Shown: positions 2,650 through 19,979, counted from the stretch's first letter. The stretch is DNA of 64,000 bases from Solirubrobacteraceae bacterium (GCA_025451035.1 JANWLE010000069.1:13483-77482), one strand, 5' to 3'. The notes: generated by a model from the sequence alone, not told the origin. Translations and numbers: made by a program.

Positions 2650-3843
2650 TCAGCGGGGTGTTCGGAGCTCTTCGATCCTGCGGGTAAGGAGAGCGCGCTC
2701 GGTCTTGTTCTGGGTGAGCGCTAGCGCGCTGCGGTATGCCCGGTCGGCTTCGGCCTGGCGGCGAAGGCGGCTGAGCAGATCGCCGCGGATCGCGTGAAAC
2801 AAGTAGTAGCGCTCGAGTTTCAGCTCATCGACGAGCGGGAGCGCGGCGCTGGGGCCGTGCACCTCGGCTACGGCGACCGCTCGGTGTAGCGACACGATCG
2901 GACCGGGAGCGGCGGCTAGCAGCTGGTCGTAGAGCTGCAAGATCTGTGCCCAGTCGGTGGCCTCGAACGTCGGTGCGTCGCTGTGAACAGCGTTGATCGC
3001 CGCCTGGATCTGATAGGGCCCTGGCTGGTCGCGCCGCAGACATTCCCGCACGAGCGCCTGACCCTCGGCGATCAGCCGGCGATCCCAGCTCCGGCGGTCT
3101 TGGTTGGCAAGGAGTGCGAGTTCGCCGTCAGGAGTGGTGCGGGCAGGGTGGCGGGCATGGATGAGCAGCATGAGAGCCAGCAGCCCTTTGGCCTCTGGTT
3201 CGTCAGGCATCAGCCGAGCCAGCAACCGTCCCAAGCGGATCGCCTCGATGCAGAGGTCCTCGCGAGCGAGCCGCTCGCCTGAGCTGGCCGCGTAGCCCTC
3301 ATTGAAGATCAAATAGATCACCGATAGAACCGCACGCACGCGTTCAGGGAGATCAGCCTCGAAGGGAACGCGGTATGGAATGCCGGCGTCTCGGATCTTG
3401 CTCTTGGCGCGAACCAGTCGCTGAGCCATGGTCGTCTCGCTAACGAGAAACGCGCGTGCAATCTCAGGGGTGCTGAGACCGCCGAGCAGCCGCAGGGTCA
3501 ACGCCACCCGGGCGGTTATCCCGAGCGCCGGGTGACAGCAAGTAAAGATCAACCGGAGGCGATCGTCTTGCACCGGGCCCTCCTCACTCGGCGGTTCTTG
3601 GAAGTGCAGAATCGCCGCTTGGGCATGGCGATCGCCACGGGAGGACTCGCGCCGCAGCCGGTCAATCGCGCGGTTGCGGGCGGTGGTAATGATCCATCCC
3701 GCGGGACTCGGAGGCAGGCCGGAGGACGGCCAGCGCTCCGAGGCAGCGGCGAAGGCGTCCTGGACCGCGTCCTCGGCCAGATCGATATCGCCGAAAGCGC
3801 GGGCCAGGACTGCCACCGCCCGTCCGTGCTCCTCCCGGAACAC
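2650..3843 (-). CDS. ECF-type RNA polymerase sigma factor with a long C-terminal extension (the kind paired with YciI proteins)
   Basis: Sigma-2 and sigma-4 regions are recognisable: [30 protein letters not shown] and [26 protein letters not shown] ~200-aa helical C-terminal domain follows. The 545-aa track ORF (to 4287) is a read-through composite. The most plausible start is GTG 3843..3841, and the start is uncertain. Confidence 0.8.
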
Positions 3844-3875
3844 GCGCGCGATCTCCGCTGAGGTGACCGGAGGGC

Positions 3876-4235
3876 TCAGTCCTGCGCCTCCTCCTGAAGC
3901 GGGCGGACCTCCACCGGTACCCGCGCTGCCCGCGTCGCCTTGCGGCCCCAGTCCAGCGCCGCGTCCAAGTCCGCTGCCTTGATCACCCAGAACCCGCCGA
4001 TGTGCTCCTTGCCCTCGAGGAACGGACCGTCGGTGGTGAGCACCTCGTCGCCCTCGAGTCGCAGCACGGTGGCCGTGCTCGAGGGATGAAGCCCACCCGC
4101 GAAAACCCATGTCCCAGTGCTCCGTAGCTCGGTGTTGAACGCCTCGACGCCGCTCATGATCTGCTGGATCTCGTCCGCCGGCGGCGCGTAATCCGCACCC
4201 TCGGCGTGGTACACGCTGAGTAGATACTGCTTCAT
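3876..4235 (-). CDS. YciI family protein
   Basis: ATG 4235 is preceded by [19 protein letters not shown]...[20 protein letters not shown] carries the YciI/DGPF signature. It lies directly upstream of the ECF sigma gene, a known pairing. Confidence 0.85.
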
Positions 4236-4506
4236 TTGACCGTCCTCCTTTAGAGGGTCTCGAGCCGGGCCCATCCCGGCCTCTCACCCCCTACACGAAC
4301 AGGCTCGGCCGAAATCGACAACGGCCTCGACAATACTTGCCGCCAGAAGCAGGGCGCCGTTGGCCCTGGTGCCTGCTTTCGCCCCGGGAGCAGGCATCCA
4401 GTCGCGAGTGACCGACACGATCGCAAGGGACGAGTTCGGGGCGTGCCGCTCGATGGGCTCCTTACGGTTGCTTCCCCGGGCGACGCGGTAGCCAGTGCGC
4501 CTCGCC

Positions 4507-5325
4507 TCAGATACTGACCTCGATGACTCGGTATGGACTGGTGACTCGGAATGCTTGTGGGTCTTCGTTGCCTTGGCGCAGGATGTGGAGGGCTTGCTCT
4601 CGCACCTGGCTGTAGCTGCCGGCCTGTTCTAGTAGTGGCCGTCCGGTGAGGCTCATGGGGTGTAGCTGCTCGTTCGCGACGAGGTAGGCCTCTGGGGATG
4701 AGGCGGTGACGCGCAGCTCACCATCATGGAACGACACGTGTGCGTTATGACGTGTGGCGAGCTCGCGGACTGCCTCGGTGTCGTGCCAGGCGAAACGGGT
4801 GGGCGTGACTCCGGTCGCTGTGGCGATCGCACGGCCGAACGTGCCGACCATAGCGTCGATCGGCCCGGTCGGCACCCACACCGAGAGCAGCGCACGTCCG
4901 CCGGGTGCCAGTACACGGATCATCTCGCCGAGAGCACGGTTCGCGTCGTTGGCGAAGATGACCCCGAAGACCGAGAGTGCTACTTCGAACGCGTGATCAT
5001 CGAACGGGAGCGCTTGCACATCACCGACGAGAAAAGACGCGTCGAGGCCCTCGCTTGCGGCCCTGGCGCGTGCGACATCGATCAGGCGGGCGGCCGCGTC
5101 GAGCCCCGTCGGGACCGCGCCCGACCGGGCGGCGAATATGGCGGCGTTGCCTGTGCCGATGGCGAGATCGAGCACCCGCTCGCCGGGCTGCAACTGGGCG
5201 AGTGACACCACGTGCTCGGCCACAGGCTTGAGTTCCACGGCGGTCTGCTCATACTGCCCGACGCCCCCCAATCGATCATCACGCCGCACGCTAAACCACA
5301 CCGCGAAAGAAGCCTGATCGATCAC
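4507..5325 (-). CDS. Class I SAM-dependent methyltransferase
   Basis: Motif I VLDLAIGTGNAA, then FDDHAFEVALSVFGVIF and LAPGGRALLSVW. Confidence 0.85.
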   Translation of the reverse strand: MIDQASFAVWFSVRRDDRLGGVGQYEQTAVELKPVAEHVVSLAQLQPGERVLDLAIGTGNAAIFAARSGAVPTGLDAAARLIDVARARAASEGLDASFLVGDVQALPFDDHAFEVALSVFGVIFANDANRALGEMIRVLAPGGRALLSVWVPTGPIDAMVGTFGRAIATATGVTPTRFAWHDTEAVRELATRHNAHVSFHDGELRVTASSPEAYLVANEQLHPMSLTGRPLLEQAGSYSQVREQALHILRQGNEDPQAFRVTSPYRVIEVSI

Positions 5326-5463
5326 GGGTTCATATCAACCCAAAGTCCGCGCTATTGGCCTGCGCGCTTACTGCTCAGCGATCAGCCGCACACGTTGCTG
5401 ATCGCCTCGCAGTTCTCGTCGCAGCACCACGCCCAAGCCGCCACCAACTCCAACATTCAACTC

Positions 5464-5498
5464 CAAATCTCAAATCTCAAATCTCAAATCTCAAATTC
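5464..5498. repeat. Heptanucleotide tandem repeat (CAAATCT)x4 plus one degenerate unit
   Basis: Four perfect CAAATCT units span 5464-5491, followed by CAAATTC. The repeat sits in a ~430-bp AT-rich non-coding patch. Confidence 0.9.
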
Positions 5499-5520
5499 AA
5501 TCCTTCATCTAGTCTCTAAT

Positions 5521-5735
5521 CACTTTCTTTGGTCCCGGTCCCACACCTCCAACTACCTCTGCTCTTCTTGTTTTCTTTTTTGTTATCCCACTTGTTGACC
5601 ATCCTTATCGAAAGCAAAGCTGAGAGAGGGGTGGTCAAGAACATCGAAGCGCAGCGAGATGAGGGATAACGGCAGACAAAAACCTATCTGCAGAGCCAAA
5701 AACCAGGTGCGGGACCGGGACCAAAGAAGTCCACG
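5521..5735. repeat. ~215-bp imperfect palindrome (long hairpin or MITE-like element)
   Basis: CTTTGGTCCCGGTCCCACACCT (5527-5548) is the reverse complement of AGGTGCGGGACCGGGACCAAAG (5705-5726), matching 21 of 22. Inner arm blocks also pair: CTCTGC/GCAGAG, GTTATCCC/GGGATAAC and TTGACCA/TGGTCAA. Confidence 0.8.
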
Positions 5736-5881
5736 AACCCGTCTGCTCCGTTGACAACCTTCCGGACGGATCCAGGACACTTGCCAGCAGCCGCGCGACA
5801 CTCACGAGGAAGCGGTGGGGTGAGGCATAGCGAACCGCTTGCGTCGACAGACCGACGAGGCATCTGCCGTTGTCCGTCACG

Positions 5882-6829
5882 TCAACTAGCGACTTCCGGC
5901 GGGACTTTTGGTAGCAACGGCCTTCCAAGGAAACGAGCCGGGTCCGGCTCGTTTGCCAGGAACCAGTTGGTAGTACGCACAGTATCGTCGCTGCCAACCC
6001 ACCATGCTAGATGCCACTCGCCCTCCCTCCAGATAAACGCCGCCTGCCGCAAATCGCCCATGACTAGCGACTCTGCCTGCGCGCCTGCCAATTCGGCTAT
6101 GCGCGTCGCACCATCCAGGGCTGGCAGGGCTTCCCGTGTGATATCGGCCGACGCGTTGATCGGGACGAAGCCGTCGATACGGGCCCCTGTCGGGCTCTCA
6201 CTTGGAAGCGTGAACTGAAACGTGATGATGCGGTCGCGATCAGGGTCCTTCGCATGGGTAGCGAGAGCCGCAATCCAGTCCATGGCAGCCAAGGCGGACT
6301 CTTTGCCGAGCTCCTCCAGGAAACCGCCGAGAAACTTCGTGGCGCCCCAAATGACTGGGATCACGAGGATCCACTCGAGGGGCGGGAGCTCGGACCAGCG
6401 GGCTACCTCTTGAATCTCGACCGGCGCATTGTCTTGAGCCACTGCGAAGGCGCGCTGGCCGAAGTTCCTAGGCTCCAGATTGATAGTCGCTATCGACGGA
6501 CACGTGTCCGCGACCGGCCGATCATCTCGCAATAGCGTCCATAGATCTGGATCCGCACCCACCGGGTGCAGCGTGCGGAACAGCCGGCCATAGAGGATCA
6601 GCTCGTCAGCGCCGTCGTCAGCGGCGACTACCTTCGCTGAATGCCATCGTCCACAGGGCGGAAGCAAGCACAGATGCTCAATAACAATTGGGATAAAGCC
6701 GCACTGAACTTGTTCGGCCATTCCATCGAGTGCGCTTCGTGTAAAGCGCACCATCTCGCCGTTTGACATCCGCGCGGGCCGCGTGCTCATGCCCTTGGCA
6801 ACAACCTCACCCTCACGCCACTCGACCAC
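5882..6829 (-). CDS. Hypothetical protein with a central hydrophobic helix
   Basis: 315-aa ORF, transcribed divergently from the QueC-like cassette. It has a hydrophobic segment LEWILVIPVIWGATKFLGGFL. I recognise no family. The start is uncertain (GTG 6829, or ATG 6790/6769). Confidence 0.55.
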   Translation of the reverse strand: MVEWREGEVVAKGMSTRPARMSNGEMVRFTRSALDGMAEQVQCGFIPIVIEHLCLLPPCGRWHSAKVVAADDGADELILYGRLFRTLHPVGADPDLWTLLRDDRPVADTCPSIATINLEPRNFGQRAFAVAQDNAPVEIQEVARWSELPPLEWILVIPVIWGATKFLGGFLEELGKESALAAMDWIAALATHAKDPDRDRIITFQFTLPSESPTGARIDGFVPINASADITREALPALDGATRIAELAGAQAESLVMGDLRQAAFIWREGEWHLAWWVGSDDTVRTTNWFLANEPDPARFLGRPLLPKVPPEVAS

Positions 6830-7079
6830 TACGCCTCACCCTAGCCAGGTTGCTGGTCTTCGTGTGATTGCTGAGATGTAGACCTTTGTCGCTCTGTGCA
6901 GCTGTCGCGTAGCCGCAGGTTGCAGCGGAGCCCAGGCATTTTGCCGCAGTCGCAGAGCTTTCTCTAGCGACGGACACCTCAAAAGGACCGGCATGCTTAT
7001 GTGGGCTCTGGCGGAGCAGTCCGCAGGAACCATGGCTCTCTTGCCCTTGCGTCTGACATCTGTGGTATATATCTTTCTA

Positions 7080-7098
7080 TTGACACTGACAATGTCAG
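7080..7098 (+). promoter_or_regulatory. Putative -35 element (TTGACA) abutting a 13-bp palindromic operator CTGACAATGTCAG
   Basis: TTGACA lies at 7080-7085. It is followed at once by a perfect 6+1+6 inverted repeat at 7086-7098, 16 nt before ATG 7114. This is a candidate site for the XRE-HTH protein encoded in the operon, and the mRNA may be leaderless or short-leadered. Confidence 0.4.
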
Positions 7099-7113
7099 AG
7101 AGGATAGCTGATC

Positions 7114-7722
7114 ATGGCAGACGGCGATTACTACGCGCGGAATCTAGCTCCCAGATGGAGGAAGGTCCGCAACACACTGTTGGGTCGTCATGATGTCCGT
7201 GTGGTTGGCGGCCTCGCTCGCGAAGCCTACGCTGAGACTATGCGCCTGGGTAACGGTGTCCCCGGCCTGAACGAGTTGTGCGGTGCGTTCGCGGCTGCGG
7301 CTCTGGACGGAGATCGTGACACGTGGACGGCGATCAACGAGGAGGTGCGGCGTGCCGTGAAACATCACGCGAATACCGAGATCGCCGCGATGGCGGGCCA
7401 GGCGCTGCTTGAGAACGACGATGGTCGACTTCGAGCCATGAGCGAAGACGAGCTTGCCGAGACGCTCGCCAAGGCCACGGCAGATCGCATCGCGCGGCAC
7501 CACTTCGCCAAGTGTCATCAAGGCCGGCTACCGGATACGTTCGCCAGCGCGAGCGAACTCCAGGCCCGCGCACGGGAGGCCTTGGCGTGCATGGACACGG
7601 CAGGCCTCGCGCGTGAGATGCTTCGCCACGAGGACGGCCGAGCTTTCAAGGCACCCGCGCGGCAGACCTCGGCGGCCGGCACCCAGCGACTCATCGGACG
7701 GACGCTTGTGGGTAGGTCGTGA
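7114..7722 (+). CDS. Hypothetical protein, first gene of the QueC-like cassette
   Basis: 202 aa, Ala/Arg-rich and apparently helical. Its stop overlaps the next start (GTGA at 7719-7722). Confidence 0.65.
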   Translation: MADGDYYARNLAPRWRKVRNTLLGRHDVRVVGGLAREAYAETMRLGNGVPGLNELCGAFAAAALDGDRDTWTAINEEVRRAVKHHANTEIAAMAGQALLENDDGRLRAMSEDELAETLAKATADRIARHHFAKCHQGRLPDTFASASELQARAREALACMDTAGLAREMLRHEDGRAFKAPARQTSAAGTQRLIGRTLVGRS

Positions 7723-9107
7723 CCGTGAGCGCGGCCGGAACCTGGAGGTCTCCGGCGGGTATCGAGTTTCGTGTCAGCGCGTCTCGCGCGTACCGGCTGG
7801 ACGATGCGATGATCGCCGCGACGTTCCGAGCGCGACTTCCTGAGCGTGTTGCAGATCTGCTCGATATCGCCATGGAGGTATATGCGGCCGACCGGCTGAC
7901 TACGCGCAGTCTTCGTGATCCGATCGGCCGCGGGTGGTGTCGCGAGCTTTCGCCGGTGATCGAGGTCCGCGACGTCGAGTTTTGGTCGTCTGACCAGGTC
8001 GCCGGCACATTGACGGGCGTCCTTGACTGGTTGACCGACGATTATTGGGAGCTGTGTTTTGTTCCGTTCCGGGGCCAGCGCTCTCACGCTGAGACGCAGG
8101 ACACCCTTTTCTCGTTCCGACCGGAGAACATTGCCGCTGTCGCCTGCTTCAGCGGTGGGCTTGACTCGTTTGGTGGTGCGGCGATCGATCTGGGTGAGCA
8201 GGAAGACCTTGAGCTTGTCCTCGTCGGCGCGAGCGGAACGAACCGCGCCCGCTCGCTGCAACGCGAGCTCTCCACAGAGTTGGCGACGCGTACGGGGCGC
8301 GTTCAGCCACTCCTGGTCAAGGCGAATCTCGTCGGCGCGAAGGCGCGGCCCCAGGATCGCCACCAGCGCACACGCGGGCTGCTGTTTCTCTCTCTCGCCG
8401 CCGCGACGGCGCTTGTCGCCGATGTCGACGAAATCCGCGTATACGAGAATGGCGTCGGCGCGATCAACCTTCCGTACAGTCATGGTCAGATCGGCGCTCA
8501 CATGTCGCGCTCAGCCCATCCCAAGACACTCGCGGCGATGCAACGTCTTGTGGATCTCATTGACGTGGCAGGGGTGCGCTTCACCTTGCCACGAATGTTC
8601 GACACTAAGGCCGAGCTCACCGCTCGAATCCCAGAGCAGTTCACGGACCTCATTAGGAGGACAGTGTCATGTGATACGTGGTCCTCCGATCGTCAGCCGC
8701 CGCCGCCGAAAGGTGAGCGCGTCCACCGCTGCGGCAGCTGCTCGAGCTGCATTCTGAGGCGGCAGGCGCTTTACGCCAGCGGCCGCGTTTCGCTCGACGC
8801 GCATGAGCGCTATCGCGCGAACGCCTTTGCGAGTAACCCTACTAATGCCGCCGCATTTTCACTACGTCTGATGCTCAACCAGATCGCCGAGCTTGACGCC
8901 GCTACTAGTGCCGAGCACCCATGGGCCGCGCTCGTTGAGGTGTTCCCGCAGCTCGTTGAGGCGCGGGACGCACTACTGAATCTTGGTCATGGCTCCAGCG
9001 TCGAAGACGAGCTGGTCGGACTTTACCGCCGCCACGCCGACGAGTGGCGTCGGGTGGAGGCACCGATTGTGGAACGGTACTTGGGGACGGTGCCGTCATG
9101 GGCGTGA
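7719..9107 (+). CDS. QueC-fold PP-loop ATPase with a ~140-aa N-terminal extension (QatC-like)
   Basis: PP-loop CFSGGLDSFGGA. The stretch GLLFLSLAAATALVADVDEIRVYENG resembles QueC GRNLLFLSFAA...VTG. TKAELTARI is also present. C-terminal Zn-cysteine cluster SCD...HRCGSCSSCILRRQAL. There are no que or tgt genes nearby. Confidence 0.85.
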   Translation: MTVSAAGTWRSPAGIEFRVSASRAYRLDDAMIAATFRARLPERVADLLDIAMEVYAADRLTTRSLRDPIGRGWCRELSPVIEVRDVEFWSSDQVAGTLTGVLDWLTDDYWELCFVPFRGQRSHAETQDTLFSFRPENIAAVACFSGGLDSFGGAAIDLGEQEDLELVLVGASGTNRARSLQRELSTELATRTGRVQPLLVKANLVGAKARPQDRHQRTRGLLFLSLAAATALVADVDEIRVYENGVGAINLPYSHGQIGAHMSRSAHPKTLAAMQRLVDLIDVAGVRFTLPRMFDTKAELTARIPEQFTDLIRRTVSCDTWSSDRQPPPPKGERVHRCGSCSSCILRRQALYASGRVSLDAHERYRANAFASNPTNAAAFSLRLMLNQIAELDAATSAEHPWAALVEVFPQLVEARDALLNLGHGSSVEDELVGLYRRHADEWRRVEAPIVERYLGTVPSWA

Positions 9108-10249
9108 GCGAGGCGGAGCTCCGTAACCCGAACCTGCCAAAGCGACTGCGCAACGCGCGACGCGACCGAGGCCTGACTCAGGAGGCTGTCGCTGAGCAGC
9201 TAGGGCTTGCCCGCACGTCGCTTGTGGCGCTTGAGAAGGGCGAGCGCTTCATCCGCCCAGACGAGCTCGTCGTGATGGCCCGGCTTTACGGTCGCCCGAT
9301 CGATGAGCTTCTCCGCCCAAGCGCTCCCGCCGACAACTTCGTCGGGCAGTTTCGCACGTCGCTCTCGCGCACAGCAGATGCCGACAAGCTTGAGGACGCA
9401 ATCCGCACGATAGAGCGTTACGCTGAGGACTACCGTGAGCTCGAGCGTCGCTCCGGCGTCGCTCCGGATCACCGGTACCCTGCGCCCTACTCGGTTGATG
9501 GGCTGTCACCCACGGCTGCGGCAACAGAAATCGCCTCGACTGAGCGCAATCGCCTGGGCCTTGGTGACGGACCACTGCCTAACCTCCGCGACATCCTTGA
9601 GACGAAGCTGGGGATCCGAGTCTTCTTTATTGAGCTGCCACCCCGGATTGAGGGCTTTTTCGCGTTCACACCGGAGACCGGCGCGTGCATTGCTGTGAAT
9701 GCCAAGCACCCGGTAGAGCGTCAACAGTGGACGATGGCGCACGAGTTCGCGCACTTCCTAACCCGGCGCTTGCGCGCAGAGATCACAGTGTCAAAGATGG
9801 AGCCGCGGGGCCGCACTCCTCAGCACGAGCGGCTCGCCGAGGCATTCGCCGGCGACTTCCTGATGCCGACCTCCGGCCTGACACGCGACTTCAACGCGAT
9901 CCGGCGCACAGGCGTGGAGGGTGTGACCCCGGGCACCCTCGTTGAGCTGGCCGCGTTCTATCGCGTTTCGTTTCAAGCACTGGTCGTCCGCCTGGAAGGA
10001 CTTGGCCTCCTGCCTCGTGGGACATTCGACATGCTCCAGCACGAGCGCTTCAGCGTCGCAGAGGCACGCCGCCTGCTCGGGCTATCTGCGCCGGAGCCCG
10101 ACACCCGTGTGTTCCCGGTGCGGTACGTGACGCTGGCTGTTGACGCCTACCGGGACGGCAGCATTTCGGAGGGTGCGTTCGCGCGCCTCCTCCTCCTCGA
10201 TCGTGTTACCGCGCGCGCAGTCGCGCGCACTCTCGAAAACATGGCATAG
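9098..10249 (+). CDS. XRE-family HTH fused to an ImmA/IrrE (COG2856) metallopeptidase
   Basis: ATG 9098 lies inside the last 10 nt of the upstream gene. HTH: LRNARRDRGLTQEAVAEQLGLARTSLVALEKGER. Zn motif: MAHEFAHFL (HExxH), followed by EAFAGDFLMP. Confidence 0.85.
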   Translation: MGVSEAELRNPNLPKRLRNARRDRGLTQEAVAEQLGLARTSLVALEKGERFIRPDELVVMARLYGRPIDELLRPSAPADNFVGQFRTSLSRTADADKLEDAIRTIERYAEDYRELERRSGVAPDHRYPAPYSVDGLSPTAAATEIASTERNRLGLGDGPLPNLRDILETKLGIRVFFIELPPRIEGFFAFTPETGACIAVNAKHPVERQQWTMAHEFAHFLTRRLRAEITVSKMEPRGRTPQHERLAEAFAGDFLMPTSGLTRDFNAIRRTGVEGVTPGTLVELAAFYRVSFQALVVRLEGLGLLPRGTFDMLQHERFSVAEARRLLGLSAPEPDTRVFPVRYVTLAVDAYRDGSISEGAFARLLLLDRVTARAVARTLENMA

Positions 10250-10251
10250 TA

Positions 10252-10806
10252 ATGGCGGCGCGCAGGCTCTCGATCGACGCCTGCGTGCTGATCAACCTGT
10301 GTGCGACCGGCCGCCTGCACGACATCGCCTCGAACCTGGATGCGTGTTTTATTGTCGTACAGGAGGTCGCAAGCGAGTCGTTCTACCTGTCTTCGACCGG
10401 TAAACGAGATGACAGGTTGACGCCGATAGACCTCGACGGTCTCCTCGCCAACGGGCTGATTGAGCTCACAAGTCTCGATGGTGACGAGTTCACGACGTTT
10501 GTCAGAGTGGCCGAGCGGCTCGATGACGGCGAGGCGGCAACGCTGGCGCTCGCGCTACACCGGGGTTTGCCCCTAGCCACAGATGATCGCGCCGCGCTAC
10601 GGTTGATCGATGCGGACTACCCGCGAATGGAGGTGCTGTCAACGTCGCAGATCATCCGGCGCTATTGCGAGCGAGCCCGTCTGTCGTCAGTCGACGTGGC
10701 CGGTTGTCTCAACGCGATCGAACAGCGCGCCAGCTTTGTCCCACCGGATCGTGACCCAGAGGTGGAGTGGTGGCGGTCGGCGCGGGAAAGCGTAAGGGGC
10801 GATTAG
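10252..10806 (+). CDS. PIN-like nuclease domain protein
   Basis: Starts 2 nt after the upstream stop. Acidic PIN-type positions: SIDACVLINL, DDGEAATLALA and LATDDRAA. PIN or DUF4411-type partners of COG2856 proteins are a known pairing. Confidence 0.65.
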   Translation: MAARRLSIDACVLINLCATGRLHDIASNLDACFIVVQEVASESFYLSSTGKRDDRLTPIDLDGLLANGLIELTSLDGDEFTTFVRVAERLDDGEAATLALALHRGLPLATDDRAALRLIDADYPRMEVLSTSQIIRRYCERARLSSVDVAGCLNAIEQRASFVPPDRDPEVEWWRSARESVRGD

Positions 10807-12283: not shown

Positions 12284-12991
12284 GTGGGCTGGGTTATGCT
12301 CCACTGCATGCCAAACGGCCGCCACGCGTTCAATCCGCTCGATCGCGTCGAGCTTGGCCGCAGCGTTGGCCGAGCCCTACTTCTGAGCCCGTGTGAGGAG
12401 CTCCCTCCTGAGCGCTTTGACGGAGTTGGTATCTACGCGCTCTACTACCAAGGCGACTTCGATCCGTATCGACCCGTCGCGTTGGCGGGTTGCGAGTGGC
12501 CGATCTATGTCGGGCGTGCTATGCCTGCTGGAGGTCGTAAGGGCTTGATCGGGCTGAACGCGTCGCCGGGCCGCAAGCTCTATGAGCGTCTACGTCAGCA
12601 CTACAGCTCGGTGAAGGCGGCCAAAAACCTAGACGAGCGTGACTTCCGTTGCCGATACCTTGTCGTGGACGACATCTGGATTCCGCTCGCCGAGCGTCTG
12701 CTGATCGGCCACTACCGGCCCCTGTGGAACGGCGTTGTGGACGGCTTCGGTATCCACGCGCCCGGTGGTACGCCTGGGGGCACGACGGGTCGCGCTGGTC
12801 AGCAGAAGTCTGCTTGGGACACATTGCATCCGGGTCGATCATTCGCCAAGGGCCGGCCCACGCGAGTGAAGCTCGCGGAGATCCGATCACGAATCGCCAA
12901 GCACATCGAAGCGCACCCGCCCCAAGCGGGCGAGCCGCCAACCCTCGCCGATCCCCCAGCTCTCGAGGCTCCAGGCGAGCTCGAAGACTAG
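12284..12991 (+). CDS. Eco29kI-family (GIY-YIG) type II restriction endonuclease
   Basis: LPPERFDGVGIYALYY, WPIYVGRAMPAGGRKG, FRCRYLVVDDIWIPLAERLLIGHYRPLWNGVVDGFGIHAPG and SAWDTLHPGRSFA match the Eco29kI pattern. The start is uncertain (GTG 12284, or ATG 12296/12308). Confidence 0.85.
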   Translation: MGWVMLHCMPNGRHAFNPLDRVELGRSVGRALLLSPCEELPPERFDGVGIYALYYQGDFDPYRPVALAGCEWPIYVGRAMPAGGRKGLIGLNASPGRKLYERLRQHYSSVKAAKNLDERDFRCRYLVVDDIWIPLAERLLIGHYRPLWNGVVDGFGIHAPGGTPGGTTGRAGQQKSAWDTLHPGRSFAKGRPTRVKLAEIRSRIAKHIEAHPPQAGEPPTLADPPALEAPGELED

Positions 12992-13067
12992 GGTGAGTTA
13001 CGGCACAAAGTTGGCTCTAAACAGGCGCTAAGCGCGGACACTTGTAGATGATGGCGCGTAGCTTCGG

Positions 13068-14432
13068 TTGGCTATGACGTCAGTCAAAAGTTCCGCCGAG
13101 CTCCGCGGTAGTGTCACGACCATGTCGCTGGGTTTTGAGCTGGCACGGCGGCCAGTCGATGCCATCTCTTCCTCAGCCGCAGGCACCTCGATCGAGCTAT
13201 TCGCGGGTGGTGGTGGCCTGGCTCTAGGTGTTCACGAGGCTGGCTTTCAGCACTTGCTCGTGAACGAGCTGGACCGTCGCGCGTGTGAGACTCTCCGCGA
13301 GAACGTCGCGGAGGACTTCGAGGCTCAATCCAGTGACGGTCGCTGGCCGTTGCTCGCCGGTGATGTCGCCGCGATCGACTGGAGTCCGTTCGCCGGGAGG
13401 GTTGATCTGCTCGCTGGTGGCGCTCCCTGCCAGCCGTTCTCGCTTGGCGGTCGCCACCGTGGCGAGCAGGACAAGCGCAATTTGTTCCCCGAAGTCTTTC
13501 GCGCGATGCGTGAAGTGCGCCCTAGGGCGTTCTTGCTGGAGAATGTGCGTGGTCTGCTGCGCCAATCCTTCAGGCCGTACTTCGATTATATTCTCGACCA
13601 GCTACGGCAGCCGTATCTCTCGCCGAAGCGAGGAGAGTCCTGGGAGCGCCACAAGGCTCGCCTCGAGCGCCAAGGCTCTCCATATGGAGCGGAGAGGGAT
13701 CGCTATGTCGTGCACACGCTGCTCGTAAACGCGGCCGACTATGGCCTGCCGCAGAACCGCCACCGCGTCCTCATCGTCGGCTTCCGCGAAGACCTCGGCG
13801 TAGAGTGGACCTGGCCTGAGGCAACACACAGCCGCCGTGCGCTCGTATGGGCGAAGAAGAACGGGTCCTACTGGAGAGAGCACGGGATCCGCCCCGTGAC
13901 GGATCCAAGCGGTCCCAACGGCGAAGGCGGATCCCATCGCGAGCCGCCAGAGCTACGCTGGCGAACTCTTCGAGACGCGATCAAGGGACTTCCTGAGCCA
14001 GTCGATGGGAAGGAGCATCCCAGGATCGCCAACCATGTCGGCATCCCCGGTGCTCGCCTGTATACAGGGCATACGGGCAATCCGCTCGACTGGCCCGCCA
14101 AGACGGTCAAGGCCGGCGTGCACGGCGTGCCTGGTGGTGAGCACGTGCTGCTCCGCGACGATGGCACCCACCGCTATCTCACCGTCCGCGAGTGCGCCCG
14201 ACTACAAGGCTTCCCGGACTCCTACCGCTTCACGGGACCTCGCAGCGAGGCAATGCGCCAGATCGGCAACGCCGTACCGGTTCCGCTTGCTCGACTTATT
14301 GCCGTCCGCGTAGCCGATAAGCTCGCTGGAACACTACGTCCAGCGCATGCAGACAACAACGGAGCGTCGCCGAGATCCCGCTGTCACCTCCCGGATGATG
14401 GCAGCGGTCAAGCACAAGGACTCACGGGCTGA
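13068..14432 (+). CDS. dcm: DNA (cytosine-5)-methyltransferase
   Basis: Motif [13 protein letters not shown], motif [14 protein letters not shown], motif [10 protein letters not shown], motif [15 protein letters not shown], then [15 protein letters not shown] and motif [10 protein letters not shown]. The start may be ATG 13074. Confidence 0.92.
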
Positions 14433-14790
14433 GCTTGCCCTTCGCCGTGAGCTGCACGCTCGCGGTGTGCGCTATCGCCTACACGCCAGAGATGTCTTTG
14501 GTTGTCCGGACATCGTCGTGCGAAAGCGCGGCGTCGCCGTGTTCGTCGACGGAGACTTCTGGCACGGCAACGCCCACAACAGGCGGGGCCTGAAAAGCCT
14601 CGAGGACCTGTTCCCCAGCAACAAGGAGTTCTGGGTGCCGAAGATCCACAGAACGATGGAGCGCGACCGCGAAGTCACCGCCACCCTGCAAGCCAATGGC
14701 TGGCAAGTCGTAAGGCTCTGGGAGGAAGACGTCCTAGAAGCGCCCGCGCTCGCTGCGGACAGGGTCGAGCGCCTCATACGAGGTCGATAG
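14347..14790 (+). CDS. vsr: Very short patch repair endonuclease
   Basis: [33 protein letters not shown]...GCPDIVV...[11 protein letters not shown]...W..KI..N..RD. It overlaps the 3' end of the methyltransferase by 86 nt in another frame. Confidence 0.85.
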
Positions 14791-15136: not shown

Positions 15137-17026
15137 CTATGCGCCTGGCGCGCCAGGCGTTTCTGTTCGCCCGGGGCGGCTTGCTGCCGCCTCACCAAGC
15201 TTACTCTTGCGCGCAACATAAGTAATGAAGTCAGCATCCCCAATCCTATTTCGATCGGGCATGCTTGTGGCACGAGCCTGTATTTGGACTAGATCTGCGT
15301 ATACGTCTATTTCAGTAAAACCAGCGTTTCGCAGTAGTGAGAAGAGCTCTCCGTGCGAGAATGCGTGCAGGACTAGATCAGAGCCTCTCAATCTGCGGTC
15401 GTCAAGTTCACCGCGGTCACTAATCGCCGGCACGTTCCTAAAGAATCGCCAGTGAACCATCCGAGCGCCCTTATCCACGTGAGCCGGATACCCACGTATC
15501 TTTTGGCCTCGGTACATCACGTCACCTTGGGTAGTGGCAGAAAACTCCTTGACTGGATCAAAGTTAATACTTCGCGCGTTATCTAGTATGGCCTGAAAGT
15601 TCCGCTCATCAATGACTAGCAGGCCGTCCCCTACTAGTGATTCACGAAACGTCTTTAGGCACTGAAGTCGGCCAGCCGCGTCATCCACTAGGCATAGCGA
15701 GTTCCCAAGACAAAGAAGCGCGTCAAAGCGCAGATTTCCAGGCAACTGGTCTGGAAGGTCCTCCCACAGAATACTCATAAAATGGAGGTTTACGTCCTGG
15801 CTCTCGGCATACTCGAGCGCCTGCTGGGCAAGTAGTCCGTCTACCTCATTGGGGAACACTTGAAAGTCGTGGCGCATGAGAAACACGCTGTCGCATGCAA
15901 TACCAGCCGCAGCGTCAAACACCGATCGCTTACCGTCGAGGGTCTCAAGGAGGAACCTGGCCATCCCACCTTCCTCACGCGCCTCTGGCTCTACATAGTT
16001 GATCCACTCTACCGCCAGCTCTCTGTTTACCAGATCGAGGCCTGGCGCAACCTTCTCTAGAGGGATGGCCTCCGCCAAGACCTTCGTGACAAACTCACTG
16101 ATCTTCTCATATGTAGTGTTCTCTCTTTGGCTATCTCCCGGAAACCACATGCCCAACTTCGTGATGCCAGTGGACGTGTCGGGTTCAAACATAACAGCAA
16201 AATTCTTCCACAGGCAGACATCAGCGTTGCCAATCCCGTACTCTTGACGAAGAGCGTTTGCGCGGGCGACATCAATCCACGTCACATCAACGTCGTGATC
16301 CTGGTGCCAGCGGTAGAAGCTCTGGTAGTCGGGACGAGCATGCCGCCAATCCTTACTTAGGTCGCCTCGTGAAGTCGTCAACACGCGGCGGTCGTGCTTT
16401 GGATTGCCACGCTCACCAAGACTTTCGGCATGGGCGTCGAGATACCACGCATACTGAGTCATGTACTCGGCCGGGCGATGGCTATCCACGCCAATATAGG
16501 CTCCCCCACCGTTACTAAAAAAGCGGGCGAACCAAGGCCGCATCGCGGTTGTGTTGGTGACTGGATAGCCGGGCCCAGTGAGTCCCCCAACGATGTCGCG
16601 CGTTGCCTGTATCTGGGCTGTAGCGAAGCTACGAAGAAACTCGCGCTTGGGCTCTTGGGTGCAGGCGGCGATATCGCGGACGTGCGACATCATCGCTGGA
16701 ACACCCCACGTGATGGACCACCGCGTAAACATCATCACGGCTATGAGGACCGAGATATCAAAAGCGACCTCGGTAAACGCGTTATTGCCAAGAGGCGCTA
16801 GCTGCTGCCTTTGGGCGAAGGCAAGAAGGAGTCTGGCGACTACGGTTGTGACCAGCGGAATGGCAAAATCACGTGTCCAGCCACGAGTGGCAAGGCGGTG
16901 GAGCCACCAGTGCCAGACTGATCTCAGTAGCCGGTGTATTGGCTGAGGCAGGTGGTGCCCTATGCGCCTGATCCAGGAAGACTGACGACGGATTTGAGCA
17001 TCCTGAGCGGTTTCAATAGTCGACAT
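15137..17026 (-). CDS. Membrane-anchored protein with an unknown central domain and a C-terminal GNMT-like class I SAM methyltransferase
   Basis: The likely start is ATG 17026 (MSTIETAQ...). Two hydrophobic segments: FAIPLVTTVVARLLLAF and VAFDISVLIAVMMFTRW. The C-terminus resembles glycine N-methyltransferases: VFDAAAGIACDS, FDALLCLGNSLCLV and DGLLVIDERNFQAIL. GC is lower than in the core, by eye. Confidence 0.7.
   Translation of the reverse strand: MSTIETAQDAQIRRQSSWIRRIGHHLPQPIHRLLRSVWHWWLHRLATRGWTRDFAIPLVTTVVARLLLAFAQRQQLAPLGNNAFTEVAFDISVLIAVMMFTRWSITWGVPAMMSHVRDIAACTQEPKREFLRSFATAQIQATRDIVGGLTGPGYPVTNTTAMRPWFARFFSNGGGAYIGVDSHRPAEYMTQYAWYLDAHAESLGERGNPKHDRRVLTTSRGDLSKDWRHARPDYQSFYRWHQDHDVDVTWIDVARANALRQEYGIGNADVCLWKNFAVMFEPDTSTGITKLGMWFPGDSQRENTTYEKISEFVTKVLAEAIPLEKVAPGLDLVNRELAVEWINYVEPEAREEGGMARFLLETLDGKRSVFDAAAGIACDSVFLMRHDFQVFPNEVDGLLAQQALEYAESQDVNLHFMSILWEDLPDQLPGNLRFDALLCLGNSLCLVDDAAGRLQCLKTFRESLVGDGLLVIDERNFQAILDNARSINFDPVKEFSATTQGDVMYRGQKIRGYPAHVDKGARMVHWRFFRNVPAISDRGELDDRRLRGSDLVLHAFSHGELFSLLRNAGFTEIDVYADLVQIQARATSMPDRNRIGDADFITYVARKSKLGEAAASRPGRTETPGAPGA
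15142..15167 (+). terminator. Intrinsic terminator for the R-M/vsr operon
   Basis: Perfect palindrome CGCCTGGCG/CGCCAGGCG (15142-15159) followed by TTTCTGTT. It overlaps the last codons of the convergent minus-strand gene. Confidence 0.5.
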
Positions 17027-17323
17027 GGCGCGGCACCCTACAGCATCGGTGCGAAAGATGCTAGTCGCTGGTACGGGTCGGCTAAACGGAATGGTTGGGA
17101 AGAGGGACGTAAGTGGGTGGTTGCGCCCGCGCCGCGCGAAGTGATCACTGAGGCCGAGAGCGACAGCGATTGGCCGCGCCCACCGTGCCAGCCTTAGGTA
17201 ACCCAAGATCCTGTATTGCAGCAGGGTTATTGCGCCGGAGTTAGCCGCCGCCGTCCATCATGTGCGTGGTGCGGCTCGAGACATATCGGCGGATACGTCG
17301 CCGGCATGAACGGCATCGTGAAC

Positions 17324-18256
17324 TTATCGGAGATCCAGGTCCCCGCTGTTGTCTGGATCGTGCTCAAAGCGTCCGAGGTCATCCTCGCGATGTCGGAGGG
17401 AGATGACGTGGGCGCGGCGGTCAGTTATCTCCCAAACAAAGAATTGACGACGCACCTCGCCTCTGCGGACGCCGCTGGAACCTGCGGCGGCTACGTATAG
17501 CGGGCCGTGATCCCACTTTTGCAATCCAAACTTCATGATCGTTGTTGCGTGTTGATGACCGTGCAACACCAGCGATGCCCCGAGTTCTACTAGACGTCTG
17601 ATTACTATTGTGGCGTCAACCGTAACGCTCACAACCAGCCGATCACTGTCGCCTGGATTAGCTGTCGCTGGCAGCACGGGCCGCGACCCCACAGGCAAGA
17701 GGTGATGATGTAGTACGGCCACGACTGTGTGCGTATCGGCGCTGATTCGTGCCTCACGCATACGGGCGCTGAGCGCATCCAGCTGTCGTTCGCCGACTAG
17801 CCCGAGACCTCTTTGGGCTTCGCTCTCAAGCTGGCATGAATCTAGCGCCACGATGGCCAATGGCTTCGAATGGTCATGTTCGATGATATGTACGGCCGGA
17901 AGGTCGACTGATGCTCCGAGCGCTTGCGCCAGCAACTTGTAGTCGTAGAGCTTGTCAGCCGGCTTAGCATCCCAGTCCACATCGTGGTTGCCGGGCACCA
18001 TGATGACGGATGTTGCGCCTGCCGCGCGAGCCAGTTGCTGGAGCTGCAGGCGTGCCTCGGCGCGCTCGCCTGCTGCTCGAGTCGTAAAGATGTCGCCCGA
18101 GAGAATTAGCGCATCGAAGCTAAGAGGCACGCAGTTCTCTTCCAGCCCTAGAAGAATCGCCTCGCGGAAAGTTCGTGCTGTTGGTGGCCGTCCATCTTGA
18201 CCAAAGGCATGATCGCGCCCGAAGTGGATGTCGGATAGCTGCAGCAGACGGTACAT
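17324..18256 (-). CDS. Calcineurin-like metallophosphoesterase
   Basis: All signature motifs are present: LSDIHFG, SGDIF, PGNHD, LHHH and HGHQH. Confidence 0.85.
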   Translation of the reverse strand: MYRLLQLSDIHFGRDHAFGQDGRPPTARTFREAILLGLEENCVPLSFDALILSGDIFTTRAAGERAEARLQLQQLARAAGATSVIMVPGNHDVDWDAKPADKLYDYKLLAQALGASVDLPAVHIIEHDHSKPLAIVALDSCQLESEAQRGLGLVGERQLDALSARMREARISADTHTVVAVLHHHLLPVGSRPVLPATANPGDSDRLVVSVTVDATIVIRRLVELGASLVLHGHQHATTIMKFGLQKWDHGPLYVAAAGSSGVRRGEVRRQFFVWEITDRRAHVISLRHREDDLGRFEHDPDNSGDLDLR

Positions 18257-18377: not shown

Positions 18378-19979
18378 ATGCTGATGAAGCAGGTACCCGA
18401 CCTCGTATCCGTCCGCGAGATGGTCGACATGGTCCAGAATGGACAGCTCGCAATCCCTGAGTTCCAGCGGCCGTTTGTTTGGAAGCCTCCGCAAGTAGCC
18501 GACCTGCTTGTGAGCGTGGCGCGACGGTGGCCGATTGGGACACTGCTTCTCTTGGAGGGACCACAGGACTTCGCGGTAAGGCCATTGGCTGAGGCGCCAG
18601 AGGTCACGAGCGCAACGCTTCTGCTCCTTGATGGTCAGCAGCGCATGACGGCTCTCTACCGAGCCCTCGGCGACCACGTGGGCGACGAGGTCTACTACGT
18701 CGATTTTAACGCTCTGCGAGAAGACAACGAGCTGTCGGATGAGCATATTAAGGTTCGGCAGCGGAAGGCATTTGTCCGACAATACCCCGATGTTGCGGCT
18801 CGCGCCCGAAGCGGGTATGCGTTGGTAGGTGAGGTTGCGGACCCAGACCAATTCCTCGAATGGCTCCGCCAGGATCCCGCTGAAATGAAGGACTTTTCTT
18901 CCCTACGTAATTCGCAGCTCGCAGGACTTCAGGATTACTCGGTTCCGGCTGTGCGGCTTTCGCGCGATATCGGCTTTGAGGCGCTAGCCAAGATCTTTGA
19001 GACAATCAATCGTACGGGTGTGAGGCTGGCGACCTTCGACCTAATGGTCGCCCGCATGTATCCTCGAAACTTCGATCTGCGTGCGAAGTGGACCGCTGCC
19101 GTCGAGACACACGAGGATCTACGGCGATTCGCGGTAGAGGGTATGGAGATTCTGCGCCTGATTGCTCTACGTGAGCTGCTGCGCGAGATACGCGAGCAAG
19201 ATCTCCGCCGGGTAAAGGGCGTGCGCCAAGGAGACGTCCTCGGGCTCGATGCAGCGGTTGTCAAGCAAGACTGGGACGCATCCGTTGCTGCCTACGTCGC
19301 GGCGCTGGGCCTGGTCCGTAAGCGTTGCGGAGTGGTCAATAAGGCGCTTATGCCTGCTTCGACGATGTTGCTGCCCCTTGCCGCGACCCTAGCCGACAAC
19401 CGCGCGGGCGCTGAGCCGGCGGCGGAGCGGTTCTTTTGGGCTGCCGGTTTGGCACAGGTTTATGCCCAGGGCGCTAATACCCAAGCTGTGCGCGACGCGC
19501 GCGAGCTGGAGCGCGAGCTTGAAGGTGGAGAACCACCAGAGGTCGTATGTCGCGCCGAGGCAGACCAGGAGCTACTGCTGGATTCACGCCGCCGCAATGA
19601 GGTGCTATTGCGCACGCTTAGCTGCTTGTTGGTGCGTAATGGCGCGCGCGACTGGCTCACCGGACAGCCGCTTATCGATTTGGAAGATGAGCCGGTGGAG
19701 AGCATGGTGTTTCCAGAATCATGGTTGCGGTCCCGCGGAATCGTGCCAGATGGGTTGCTGAACTGGACGGTCCAGTCAAAGGAAACGGACGCGCAGCTTG
19801 CCGAGATGGAGCCATCCCAACTAGTGTCTCGTGGCGACCTTGTTCTCGCGGCAGTGGAGTCACAGCTGGTCGATCTCGCCGCACTACGTGCTAATGACTG
19901 GCAACTGTTTGCTGACAGCCGCGCACGGGCAATGCGTGGGCTTCTAGAGGTTCTGCTCCAGGATGTGCGCCAAATCTAG
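18378..19979 (+). CDS. DUF262 (ParB-like/GmrSD N-terminal type) domain protein without a recognisable His-Me nuclease domain
   Basis: IPEFQRPFVW and LLLDGQQRMTALY are the DUF262 signatures. There is no histidine in the last ~160 residues. Confidence 0.85.
   Translation: MLMKQVPDLVSVREMVDMVQNGQLAIPEFQRPFVWKPPQVADLLVSVARRWPIGTLLLLEGPQDFAVRPLAEAPEVTSATLLLLDGQQRMTALYRALGDHVGDEVYYVDFNALREDNELSDEHIKVRQRKAFVRQYPDVAARARSGYALVGEVADPDQFLEWLRQDPAEMKDFSSLRNSQLAGLQDYSVPAVRLSRDIGFEALAKIFETINRTGVRLATFDLMVARMYPRNFDLRAKWTAAVETHEDLRRFAVEGMEILRLIALRELLREIREQDLRRVKGVRQGDVLGLDAAVVKQDWDASVAAYVAALGLVRKRCGVVNKALMPASTMLLPLAATLADNRAGAEPAAERFFWAAGLAQVYAQGANTQAVRDARELERELEGGEPPEVVCRAEADQELLLDSRRRNEVLLRTLSCLLVRNGARDWLTGQPLIDLEDEPVESMVFPESWLRSRGIVPDGLLNWTVQSKETDAQLAEMEPSQLVSRGDLVLAAVESQLVDLAALRANDWQLFADSRARAMRGLLEVLLQDVRQI

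Follow-up and report, generated by a model that had tools for sequence, protein, structure and literature searches.

A conserved four-gene cassette joining a QatC-like enzyme to a helix-turn-helix/M78-PIN module in a Solirubrobacteraceae bacterium is a candidate anti-phage system

We analyzed a 64,000-nucleotide (nt) stretch of DNA from a Solirubrobacteraceae bacterium (GCA_025451035.1, JANWLE010000069.1:13483-77482; hereafter the window), in which an initial annotation had proposed a candidate defence cassette of four translationally coupled genes built around a QueC-fold, QatC-like ATPase. The four genes, named here g1 to g4, and the features that they carry are the following, with positions counted from the first letter of the window:

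7114-7722, + strand: g1, 202 amino acids (aa), ATG start; all-alpha partner protein, proposed substrate or partner of g2
7114-7158, + strand: N-terminal arm of g1, M-A-D-G-D and then W15
7719-9107, + strand: g2, 462 aa, GTG start; QatC-family PP-loop ATP pyrophosphatase
8151-8168, + strand: PP-loop SGGLDS of g2 (residues 145-150)
about 8670-8750, + strand: Zn-Cys4 cluster of g2 (C318, then C338-G-S-C-S-S-C344)
9098-10249, + strand: g3, 383 aa counted from ATG 9098; fusion of an XRE-type helix-turn-helix (HTH), an M78 domain and an antitoxin tail
9140-9313, + strand: XRE-HTH of g3 (aa 15-72)
9605-9994, + strand: M78/ImmA domain of g3 (aa 170-299), with HEFAH at 9740-9754
10130-10210, + strand: UPF0175-like antitoxin tail of g3 (aa 345-371)
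10252-10806, + strand: g4, 184 aa; VapC-type PIN nuclease of the COG2405/DUF3368 family

The coordinates, the common strand and all three junctions agreed with the earlier description of four chained open reading frames (ORFs). A GTGA overlap at 7719-7722 joins g1 to g2, the ATG of g3 (9098) lies 10 nt within g2, whose stop codon occupies 9105-9107, and the TAG that ends g3 (10247-10249) is followed after 2 nt by the ATG of g4 at 10252. A longer g3 could start at a GTG at 9044; the length of 383 aa is also the one given in public gene calls. No intrinsic terminator was found 3' of g4. All of the g2 motifs originally listed (SGGLDS, GLLFLSLAA, C...CGSCSSC and an N-terminal extension of ~140 aa) were recovered in the translation. 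The reported absence of queD, queE, queF and tgt, and of a KAP NTPase (QatA) or TatD (QatD) gene, also held among the larger ORFs that we scanned between 1 and 24 kb of the window.

This four-gene arrangement is far beyond chance and recurs with fixed order on one strand in 68 of 71 complete loci. We obtained the loci by scanning one genome per species with g2-derived patterns, which returned 80 loci (26-69% identity), and scored them with custom hidden Markov models (HMMs); 71 had room on both sides and were treated as complete. Each of the 68 belongs to a different species, and the hosts span at least 8 phyla, including Actinomycetota, Chloroflexota, Acidobacteriota, Cyanobacteriota, Deinococcota, Verrucomicrobiota and Gemmatimonadota, with additional copies on Pseudomonadota plasmids. 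The exceptions were two loci with g1 and g2 only and one without a detectable g1. Across loci, the commonest g1/g2 junction was a 4-nt overlap. The same synteny emerged from the other ends of the cassette: a search from g1 homologues led to 6 independent metagenomic loci with the identical four genes in wholly different flanks, and a reverse test based on the three most distant g4 homologues that could be looked up placed all of them inside complete cassettes. Thus, the association of the QueC-like gene with the ImmA and PIN genes, on which the initial annotation depended, is a general property of the family. We found no fifth conserved gene. As any one flanking ORF family occurs in at most 4 of the 74 cassettes examined, the unit has no hidden fifth component, no QatA and no QatD.

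Upstream of g1, the window contains three elements with regulatory potential:

7052-7059, + strand: upstream operator half-site TCTGACAT, within a 20-nt direct repeat paired with 7072-7091
7080-7085, + strand: TTGACA hexamer (-35 consensus), 29-34 nt 5' of the g1 ATG; candidate promoter element
7086-7098, no strand assigned: palindromic operator CTGACAATGTCAG (CTGACA-A-TGTCAG), presumed site of the g3 XRE-HTH

An exact TGACA-N-TGTCA palindrome lies 20-82 nt 5' of g1 in 55 of the 71 cassettes, and 65 have it when up to 1 mismatch is allowed; in 42 of the 55, its left half is the -35 consensus TTGACA. A simple promoter scan returned one marginal match (CTGACA-18-GATCAT). Elsewhere in the 1.12 Mb of locus DNA the exact palindrome occurred only once (background, 0.0055 per 200 nt) and, therefore, the operator does not recur before g3. 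The operator is retained in plasmid copies of the cassette, and the exact palindrome is absent from the two loci that lack g3 and g4, which keep the N-terminal tag of g1. Given also the high conservation of the g3 HTH residues, we infer that g3 auto-represses a single operon.

These results bear on the possibility that two independent systems simply travel together, namely a minimal QatBC-like system and a RosmerTA-like toxin-antitoxin (TA) pair with HTH-M78 and PIN components. HTH-DUF955 genes paired with COG2405 PINs do exist alone (PMC5499597), RosmerTA functions with two genes, and genes are tightly packed in defence islands. We nevertheless regard independent co-travel as improbable, because the four genes co-occur at 96% across phyla despite protein identities of 26-38%, g2 and g3 overlap or abut, the operator precedes g1 (55 of 71) and not g3, and searches started from g1, g2 or g4 all yield the four-gene cassette in loci whose flanks differ entirely.

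The enzyme encoded by g2 places the cassette near the Qat systems. It matched QatC models in PADLOC (4e-45) and NCBIfam (8e-51) and aligned over residues 42-352 to the solved QatC of P. aeruginosa (9zee_B, 1e-23), an alignment that takes in the QatC-specific extension at the N-terminus and also the PP-loop (S145-S150), the adenine site RxRxxxF, the long loop at the active site and the zinc cysteines. The likeness to QatABCD thus covers both the extension and the QueC core, and includes the motifs D(x)4R...WxR, DxWxxxF, RxRxxxF, ExG, HP, P(x)4TK and C(x)19CGxCxxC, which are QatC signatures as listed by Libby et al. The PP-loop, RxR, YENG, HP, TK and the four zinc cysteines are kept in 73-74 of the 74 cassettes. 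By contrast, g2 scored 173.2 bits on the NCBIfam QatC equivalog (NF041925), below its cut-off of 280 bits, and in a crude neighbor-joining tree the 74 cassette enzymes formed one clade, with canonical QatC and a third group in clades of their own and ~26% identity between groups. These two features, together with two unconserved threonines discussed below, separate the enzyme from that of QatABCD. The C-terminal ~85 aa, the part of QatC that binds QatB, are present in length but did not align to QatC. Judged by its sequence, g2 is a member of the QatC family that falls outside the NCBI QatC equivalog cut-off.

Queuosine metabolism was considered as a function of g2 and rejected: the enzyme failed the QueC equivalog TIGR00364 (16.1 bits against a cut-off of 150.3), Pfam QueC matched only its C-terminal half, and no que genes were present among the scanned neighbours. 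As the initial annotation anticipated, homologues of g2 do not sit in queuosine pathways either; their flanks are variable and often contain defence or TA genes. The broader notion of a cassette unrelated to defence, whether as a TA or regulatory module that responds to stress or as a paralogue from 7-deazaguanine metabolism, finds some encouragement in the names that PGAP assigns to the plasmid copies (hypothetical, 7-cyano-7-deazaguanine synthase, XRE family regulator and hypothetical, in gene order) and in the control of stress regulons by M78/XRE pairs of the IrrE/DdrO type (PMC7907104). We consider it very improbable in view of the score on the QueC equivalog and the QatC-type motifs found instead, the lack of que genes among the scanned neighbours, and the patchy distribution and variable flanks of a cassette that resides in defence islands and conjugative plasmids.

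Adjacent to this enzyme, g1 encodes a small, rapidly evolving protein. Its family comprises 22 close clusters (~150 representatives at 50% identity), and the only residues conserved in at least 90% of the 74 cassettes are M1, D3 and D5. They define an N-terminal tag with the consensus M-[P/A]-D-x-D, in which position 2 is occupied by Pro in 56 of the 74 cassettes and by Ala in a further 13, and position 4 is mostly Gly; further along the arm, position 15 is Trp or Tyr. In all 71 cassettes the tag begins with an ATG, which a Shine-Dalgarno-like motif precedes in 63 of them; for this reason, we take the tag as the real N-terminus of the protein. A small second residue generally leads to the removal of Met (PMC13279940), which by analogy would expose Pro or Ala on g1. 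The AlphaFold model of the protein is all-helical (predicted local distance difference test (pLDDT), 89), and searches of the Pfam, PADLOC and NCBIfam libraries retrieved no match. A small, all-helical protein with a fixed N-terminal tag, encoded just upstream of and overlapping the QatC-like gene, recalls the pairing of QatB with QatC. In QatB, and in the CD-NTase (CdnD) of the type IV cyclic-oligonucleotide-based anti-phage signaling system (CBASS), conserved N-terminal tails (MGTS and MGGS, respectively) enter the active site of the QueC-like enzyme, the tags are modified or essential, and Gly2 is essential (PMC13279940, PMC13376578). The tag of g1 is a parallel to the MGTS tag of QatB, albeit an acidic one.

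Some individual loci illustrate how the cassette varies. The two loci with g1 and g2 only are L019:7235-9242 (Spirillospora sp.) and L033:7319-9248 (Thermomonospora catenispora); their tags are intact (VPDDD and VPDQD), neither carries g3-g4 or the exact operator palindrome, and a convergent beta-galactosidase gene directly follows in L019. A decayed copy is present in an Actinomycetota metagenome-assembled genome (CAWATV010000012.1, 3048-6731; L004, the same as L010), with a truncated g1, g2 in two pieces, g3 broken into one piece with the HTH and another with the M78 domain and tail, and an intact g4. Divergent alphaproteobacterial cassettes, from Bosea vaviloviae (L090, NZ_CP017148.1), Agrobacterium radiobacter (L092, pAoF64/95, NC_019555.1) and Mesorhizobium (L168), reside on conjugative plasmids. 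The g1-like tag of these three is M-S-D-G-P-H-[K/R]-S-L-P, and the divergent plasmid cassettes retain the operator. A predicted viral or prophage contig (L126, IMGVR_UViG_3300043772_005203) carries a complete four-gene cassette with its operator at 3310-7259. Among cultured phage genomes, we found two weak Listeria matches only and no cassette.

The second half of the cassette couples a regulator to a nuclease. g3 matched Pfam HTH_3 and Peptidase_M78, 16 PADLOC models of RmrA, a RosmerTA component (best, 5.8e-27), and the PADLOC capP and capH models; the zinc ligands of its M78 domain (H215, H219 and E244) are 100% conserved. Its last 100 residues matched UPF0175 in 26 of the 74 cassettes, and no other family recurs there. 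Because UPF0175 proteins have been reported exclusively beside COG2405 PINs (Matelska et al. 2017; PMC5499597), the tail of g3 probably constitutes the cognate antitoxin module for g4. Sequence searches with g4 gave weak PIN matches only: a profile search of PDB found no meaningful match, direct Pfam scans of family members were mostly empty, and PADLOC returned nothing below E = 0.03 and no RmrT model at E <= 0.1. PF11848/DUF3368 is present on nearly all g4 homologues. The fold confirmed the PIN call, as the AlphaFold model (pLDDT 95.4) had only PIN/VapC proteins among its top Foldseek matches (probability 1.00), including the COG2405 representative 2mdt. The protein carries the acidic residues D9, E42, E94, D111 and D112 and a C-terminal WW motif, and the catalytic residues are intact in all 74 cassettes.

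We interpret these genes as one self-contained, autoregulated module that is probably an abortive-infection-type anti-phage system composed of two coupled pairs. A role in defence is proposed because of the genomic context, namely the defence genes beside the cassette in the window and at other loci (see below). The cassette is also patchily distributed, its flanks vary, and it is found in defence islands and on conjugative plasmids. From the gene identities, the conserved architecture, the tag, the operator and the catalytic residues, a model can be drawn of the binding partners, chemistry, trigger and defence phenotype that the module might have. A promoter overlapped by (T/C)TGACA-W-TGTCAG would drive the four coupled genes and be repressed by the XRE-HTH of g3. 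By analogy with QatB/QatC and CdnD/Cap9, the 14-residue N-terminal arm of g1 ([P/A]-D-x-D ... W15) would enter the active site of g2 and be covalently modified there in an ATP-dependent, adenylation-based reaction. The pairing of families suggests that the UPF0175-like tail of g3 holds the g4 PIN inactive. In what is the least supported step, infection would alter the state of g1-g2, and the M78 domain of g3 would read this change; g3 could then be cleaved or otherwise inactivated, de-repressing the operon and freeing the PIN toxin.

Several observations weigh against this model. No sequence feature shows how g1-g2 would communicate with g3-g4. The proposal that g1 is the equivalent of QatB survives in position and logic only. 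As far as sequence is concerned, we rejected homology between the two: an hhalign comparison of the g1 family with 115 QatB sequences gave a probability of 0.9%, phmmer and profile searches of PDB with g1 retrieved no QatB, and PF28083, a Pfam family present on QatB relatives, was found on none of the g1 relatives. The best Foldseek match of g1 in PDB had E = 0.69, in a library that ends on 2026-04-08 and may predate the QatB entries 9zee and 9vlk. The g1 model lacks the long disordered tail of QatB, its helices starting at residue 4, and the residue that follows Met is Pro or Ala rather than the Gly required by QatB and CdnD. In g2, the positions of T278 and T280, which are invariant in the QatC substrate pocket and essential in the P. 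aeruginosa enzyme, are S263 and S265 in the window and variable in the clade (T30/S29/A10/Y4 and S43/A24/G5 in the 74 cassettes). Finally, g3 has lost Glu216, the catalytic general base of its HExxH motif, in 25 of the 74 cassettes (Gly in 15, Asp in 9 and Ala in 1). Hence, proteolysis may not be the universal switch.

The loss of Glu216 also affects how the PIN nuclease might be controlled. The initial annotation viewed g4 as protease-gated, an idea that the antitoxin tail of g3 reinforces and the missing glutamate, in about a third of the cassettes, weakens. The 15 cassettes with Gly at this residue (window 9743-9745) are cyanobacterial, and the 9 with Asp come from Chloroflexota and Chthonomonadaceae; the substituted loci include L046, L051, L055, L059, L064, L070 and L072. 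The substitutions suggest that, in these clades, g3 works as a non-proteolytic, zinc-dependent switch. Rir is a precedent for a non-proteolytic COG2856 protein (PMC7907104). The same substitutions argue against a scheme in which g2 would ligate the N-terminus of g1 to a small molecule or a target, the M78 peptidase of g3 would remove or trim the resulting conjugate, and the PIN nuclease would respond to the balance of these two activities. The operon does encode both a peptidase and an enzyme of ligase type, the g1 tag is fixed, and the antagonism of Cap2 and Cap3 offers a model: in type II CBASS, Cap3 reverses the conjugation catalyzed by Cap2. Yet the tag of g1 and the active site of g2 stay intact in the 25 cassettes whose putative eraser has no catalytic Glu, which makes this scheme improbable.

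The main rival to the model of two coupled pairs has g1-g2 as the whole defence machine, g3 as a transcriptional switch similar to CapH/CapP or ImmR/ImmA that boosts expression under stress, and g4 as a toxin for addiction or back-up with a stabilizing effect on the cassette. Regulation by HTH-M78 modules, such as CapH/CapP, occurs in other defence systems, and the conserved operator and HTH, as well as the matches of g3 to capP and capH models, point to regulation here. Two species, moreover, have g1-g2 only. In the canonical system, QatBC alone is sufficient against lambda-vir (PMC13279940) and, for this reason, g3-g4 need not be the effector, which is a further point against the coupled model. 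We judge this rival unlikely overall: all 74 cassettes keep g4 and its catalytic residues, its family was found inside cassettes only, the UPF0175-like tail points to a dedicated contact between antitoxin and toxin, and loci with g1-g2 only are rare (2 of 71).

When compared with known systems, the cassette appears to work like a Qat core with a RosmerTA-like (HTH-DUF955-PIN) module attached. Unlike QatABCD, it has neither QatA nor QatD, both of which we detected in control canonical loci; a survey of the QueC family listed KAP NTPase and TatD as the sole neighbours of QatC, each at ~34%. The partner protein of the cassette is not a QatB homologue and bears the tag [P/A]-D-x-D instead of G-T-S, and the HTH-M78-antitoxin fusion and the PIN toxin are obligate extra components. 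With RosmerTA, the cassette shares the fusion of XRE-HTH and M78 recognized by the RmrA models; it differs in that g4 matches no RmrT and the unit has four genes rather than two. It also has the order of the HTH-DUF955(COG2856)-PIN(COG2405/DUF4411) modules (Matelska 2017), with a COG2405/DUF3368 PIN downstream of an HTH and DUF955 (PF06114) gene. In contrast to both kinds of module, g3-g4 were never found alone but always downstream of g1-g2, and g3 carries the additional UPF0175-like tail. According to Matelska et al., it is still to be determined which signal acts upstream of HTH-DUF955-PIN modules to trigger their DUF955 protease (PMC5499597).

Similar mixtures of likeness and difference characterize the remaining comparisons. 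In type IV CBASS, the target of the QueC-family enzyme is the N-terminal tail of a protein encoded by the adjacent gene, as may be the case here by analogy. However, Cap9 is a minimal enzyme of ~185 aa with QueC catalytic motifs, whereas g2 has 462 aa, is QatC-like and has remodelled motifs; the tag of g1 is not MGGS, and no CD-NTase or Cap10 was present among the scanned neighbours of g2. ImmR/ImmA, DdrO/IrrE and CapH/CapP also combine an XRE repressor, an M78 peptidase and a palindromic operator overlapping the promoter, but g3 is a single fused protein with an antitoxin tail, its catalytic Glu is dispensable in some clades, and the genes under its control would be the QatC-like pair and the PIN toxin. 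PADLOC HMMs recognized QatC in g2 and RmrA in g3 only, leaving the whole cassette unclassified by existing models, and full-text literature searches returned no description of it.

A homologue of g1 came from the third group of QatC-like enzymes, a two-gene module that made up 55 of 73 viral-contig matches (L093-L163 from IMG/VR; e.g., L093:4557-7366 and L112:4199-6875). Its partner protein of ~260 aa, whose gene overlaps that of the QatC-like enzyme, shares homology with g1 at an hhalign probability of 92.5%, W15 being in register. The module differs from the cassette in the tag of the partner (M-G-H-x-R-L-G-x-L-P-x-T-R-K-W), in the enzyme, which has 600-750 aa and a C-terminal extension of ~250-300 aa of no named family, and in the lack of g3 and g4, a sigma-70-like ORF often being next. 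We found no QatA, QatB or QatD in it, its only PADLOC match was QatC, and it matched no named system.

The cassette of the window has other defence genes downstream, an Eco29kI-type restriction-modification (R-M) system with Vsr and a GmrSD-like gene. The former (12284-14790), immediately beyond the cassette, is a complete type II R-M unit in which an Eco29kI-type restriction endonuclease accompanies a C5 cytosine methyltransferase and an overlapping gene for the very-short-patch repair endonuclease Vsr; the latter (18378-19979, + strand) encodes a GmrSD-like/PDC-M55C protein. Between them (15137-18256, - strand), a 689-aa ORF without a family match lies downstream of a 310-aa calcineurin-like metallophosphoesterase, which weakly matched the PADLOC 'Effector endonuclease' model. 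These two genes may be another uncharacterised defence pair. A 315-aa ORF without a family match (5882-6829, - strand) diverges from the promoter region of the cassette, and a sigma-70 (r2/r4) protein with a DUF6596 domain is encoded further upstream (2650-4287, - strand); we found no link between either gene and the cassette. At other loci, the cassette adjoins Gabija-like genes, CBASS, HipBA with Abi/HEPN genes, type I R-M, HepT or Lit, the last being a Lit-family exclusion gene beside the Agrobacterium plasmid copy (L092).

The three groups of QatC-like enzymes invite a joint reading, which we regard as quite doubtful, in which these enzymes are general modifiers of N-terminal protein tags, the acidic tag of g1 supplies the carboxylate to be adenylated, and modified g1 is the signal for the M78 switch. 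The partner and effector sets may be interchangeable, with QatB and its MGTS tag, the 'MGH' partner and the acidic [P/A]-D-x-D partner each serving an enzyme of the family. The chemistry on Asp3 or Asp5 could be of the asparagine-synthetase type, in which case the tag would not serve as the amine nucleophile. If true, adenylation of Asp3 or Asp5 would be a new kind of protein modification, and modified g1 would be the long-sought switch by which the COG2856/M78 domain releases a PIN toxin. At present the cassette is missed or mis-named by defence finders and by PGAP, with g2 called 7-cyano-7-deazaguanine synthase. Its recognition makes testable both the QatC-type reaction and how modification of the partner restricts phage (PMC13279940, PMC13376578). 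As a natural variant with a very short acidic partner tag and an easily assayed PIN effector, it offers a cleaner read-out than QatABCD, and the conserved operator is a ready reporter. For the COG2856/XRE/PIN and RosmerTA-type modules, whose trigger is in question (PMC5499597), the g1-g2 pair provides a concrete candidate for the signal generator.

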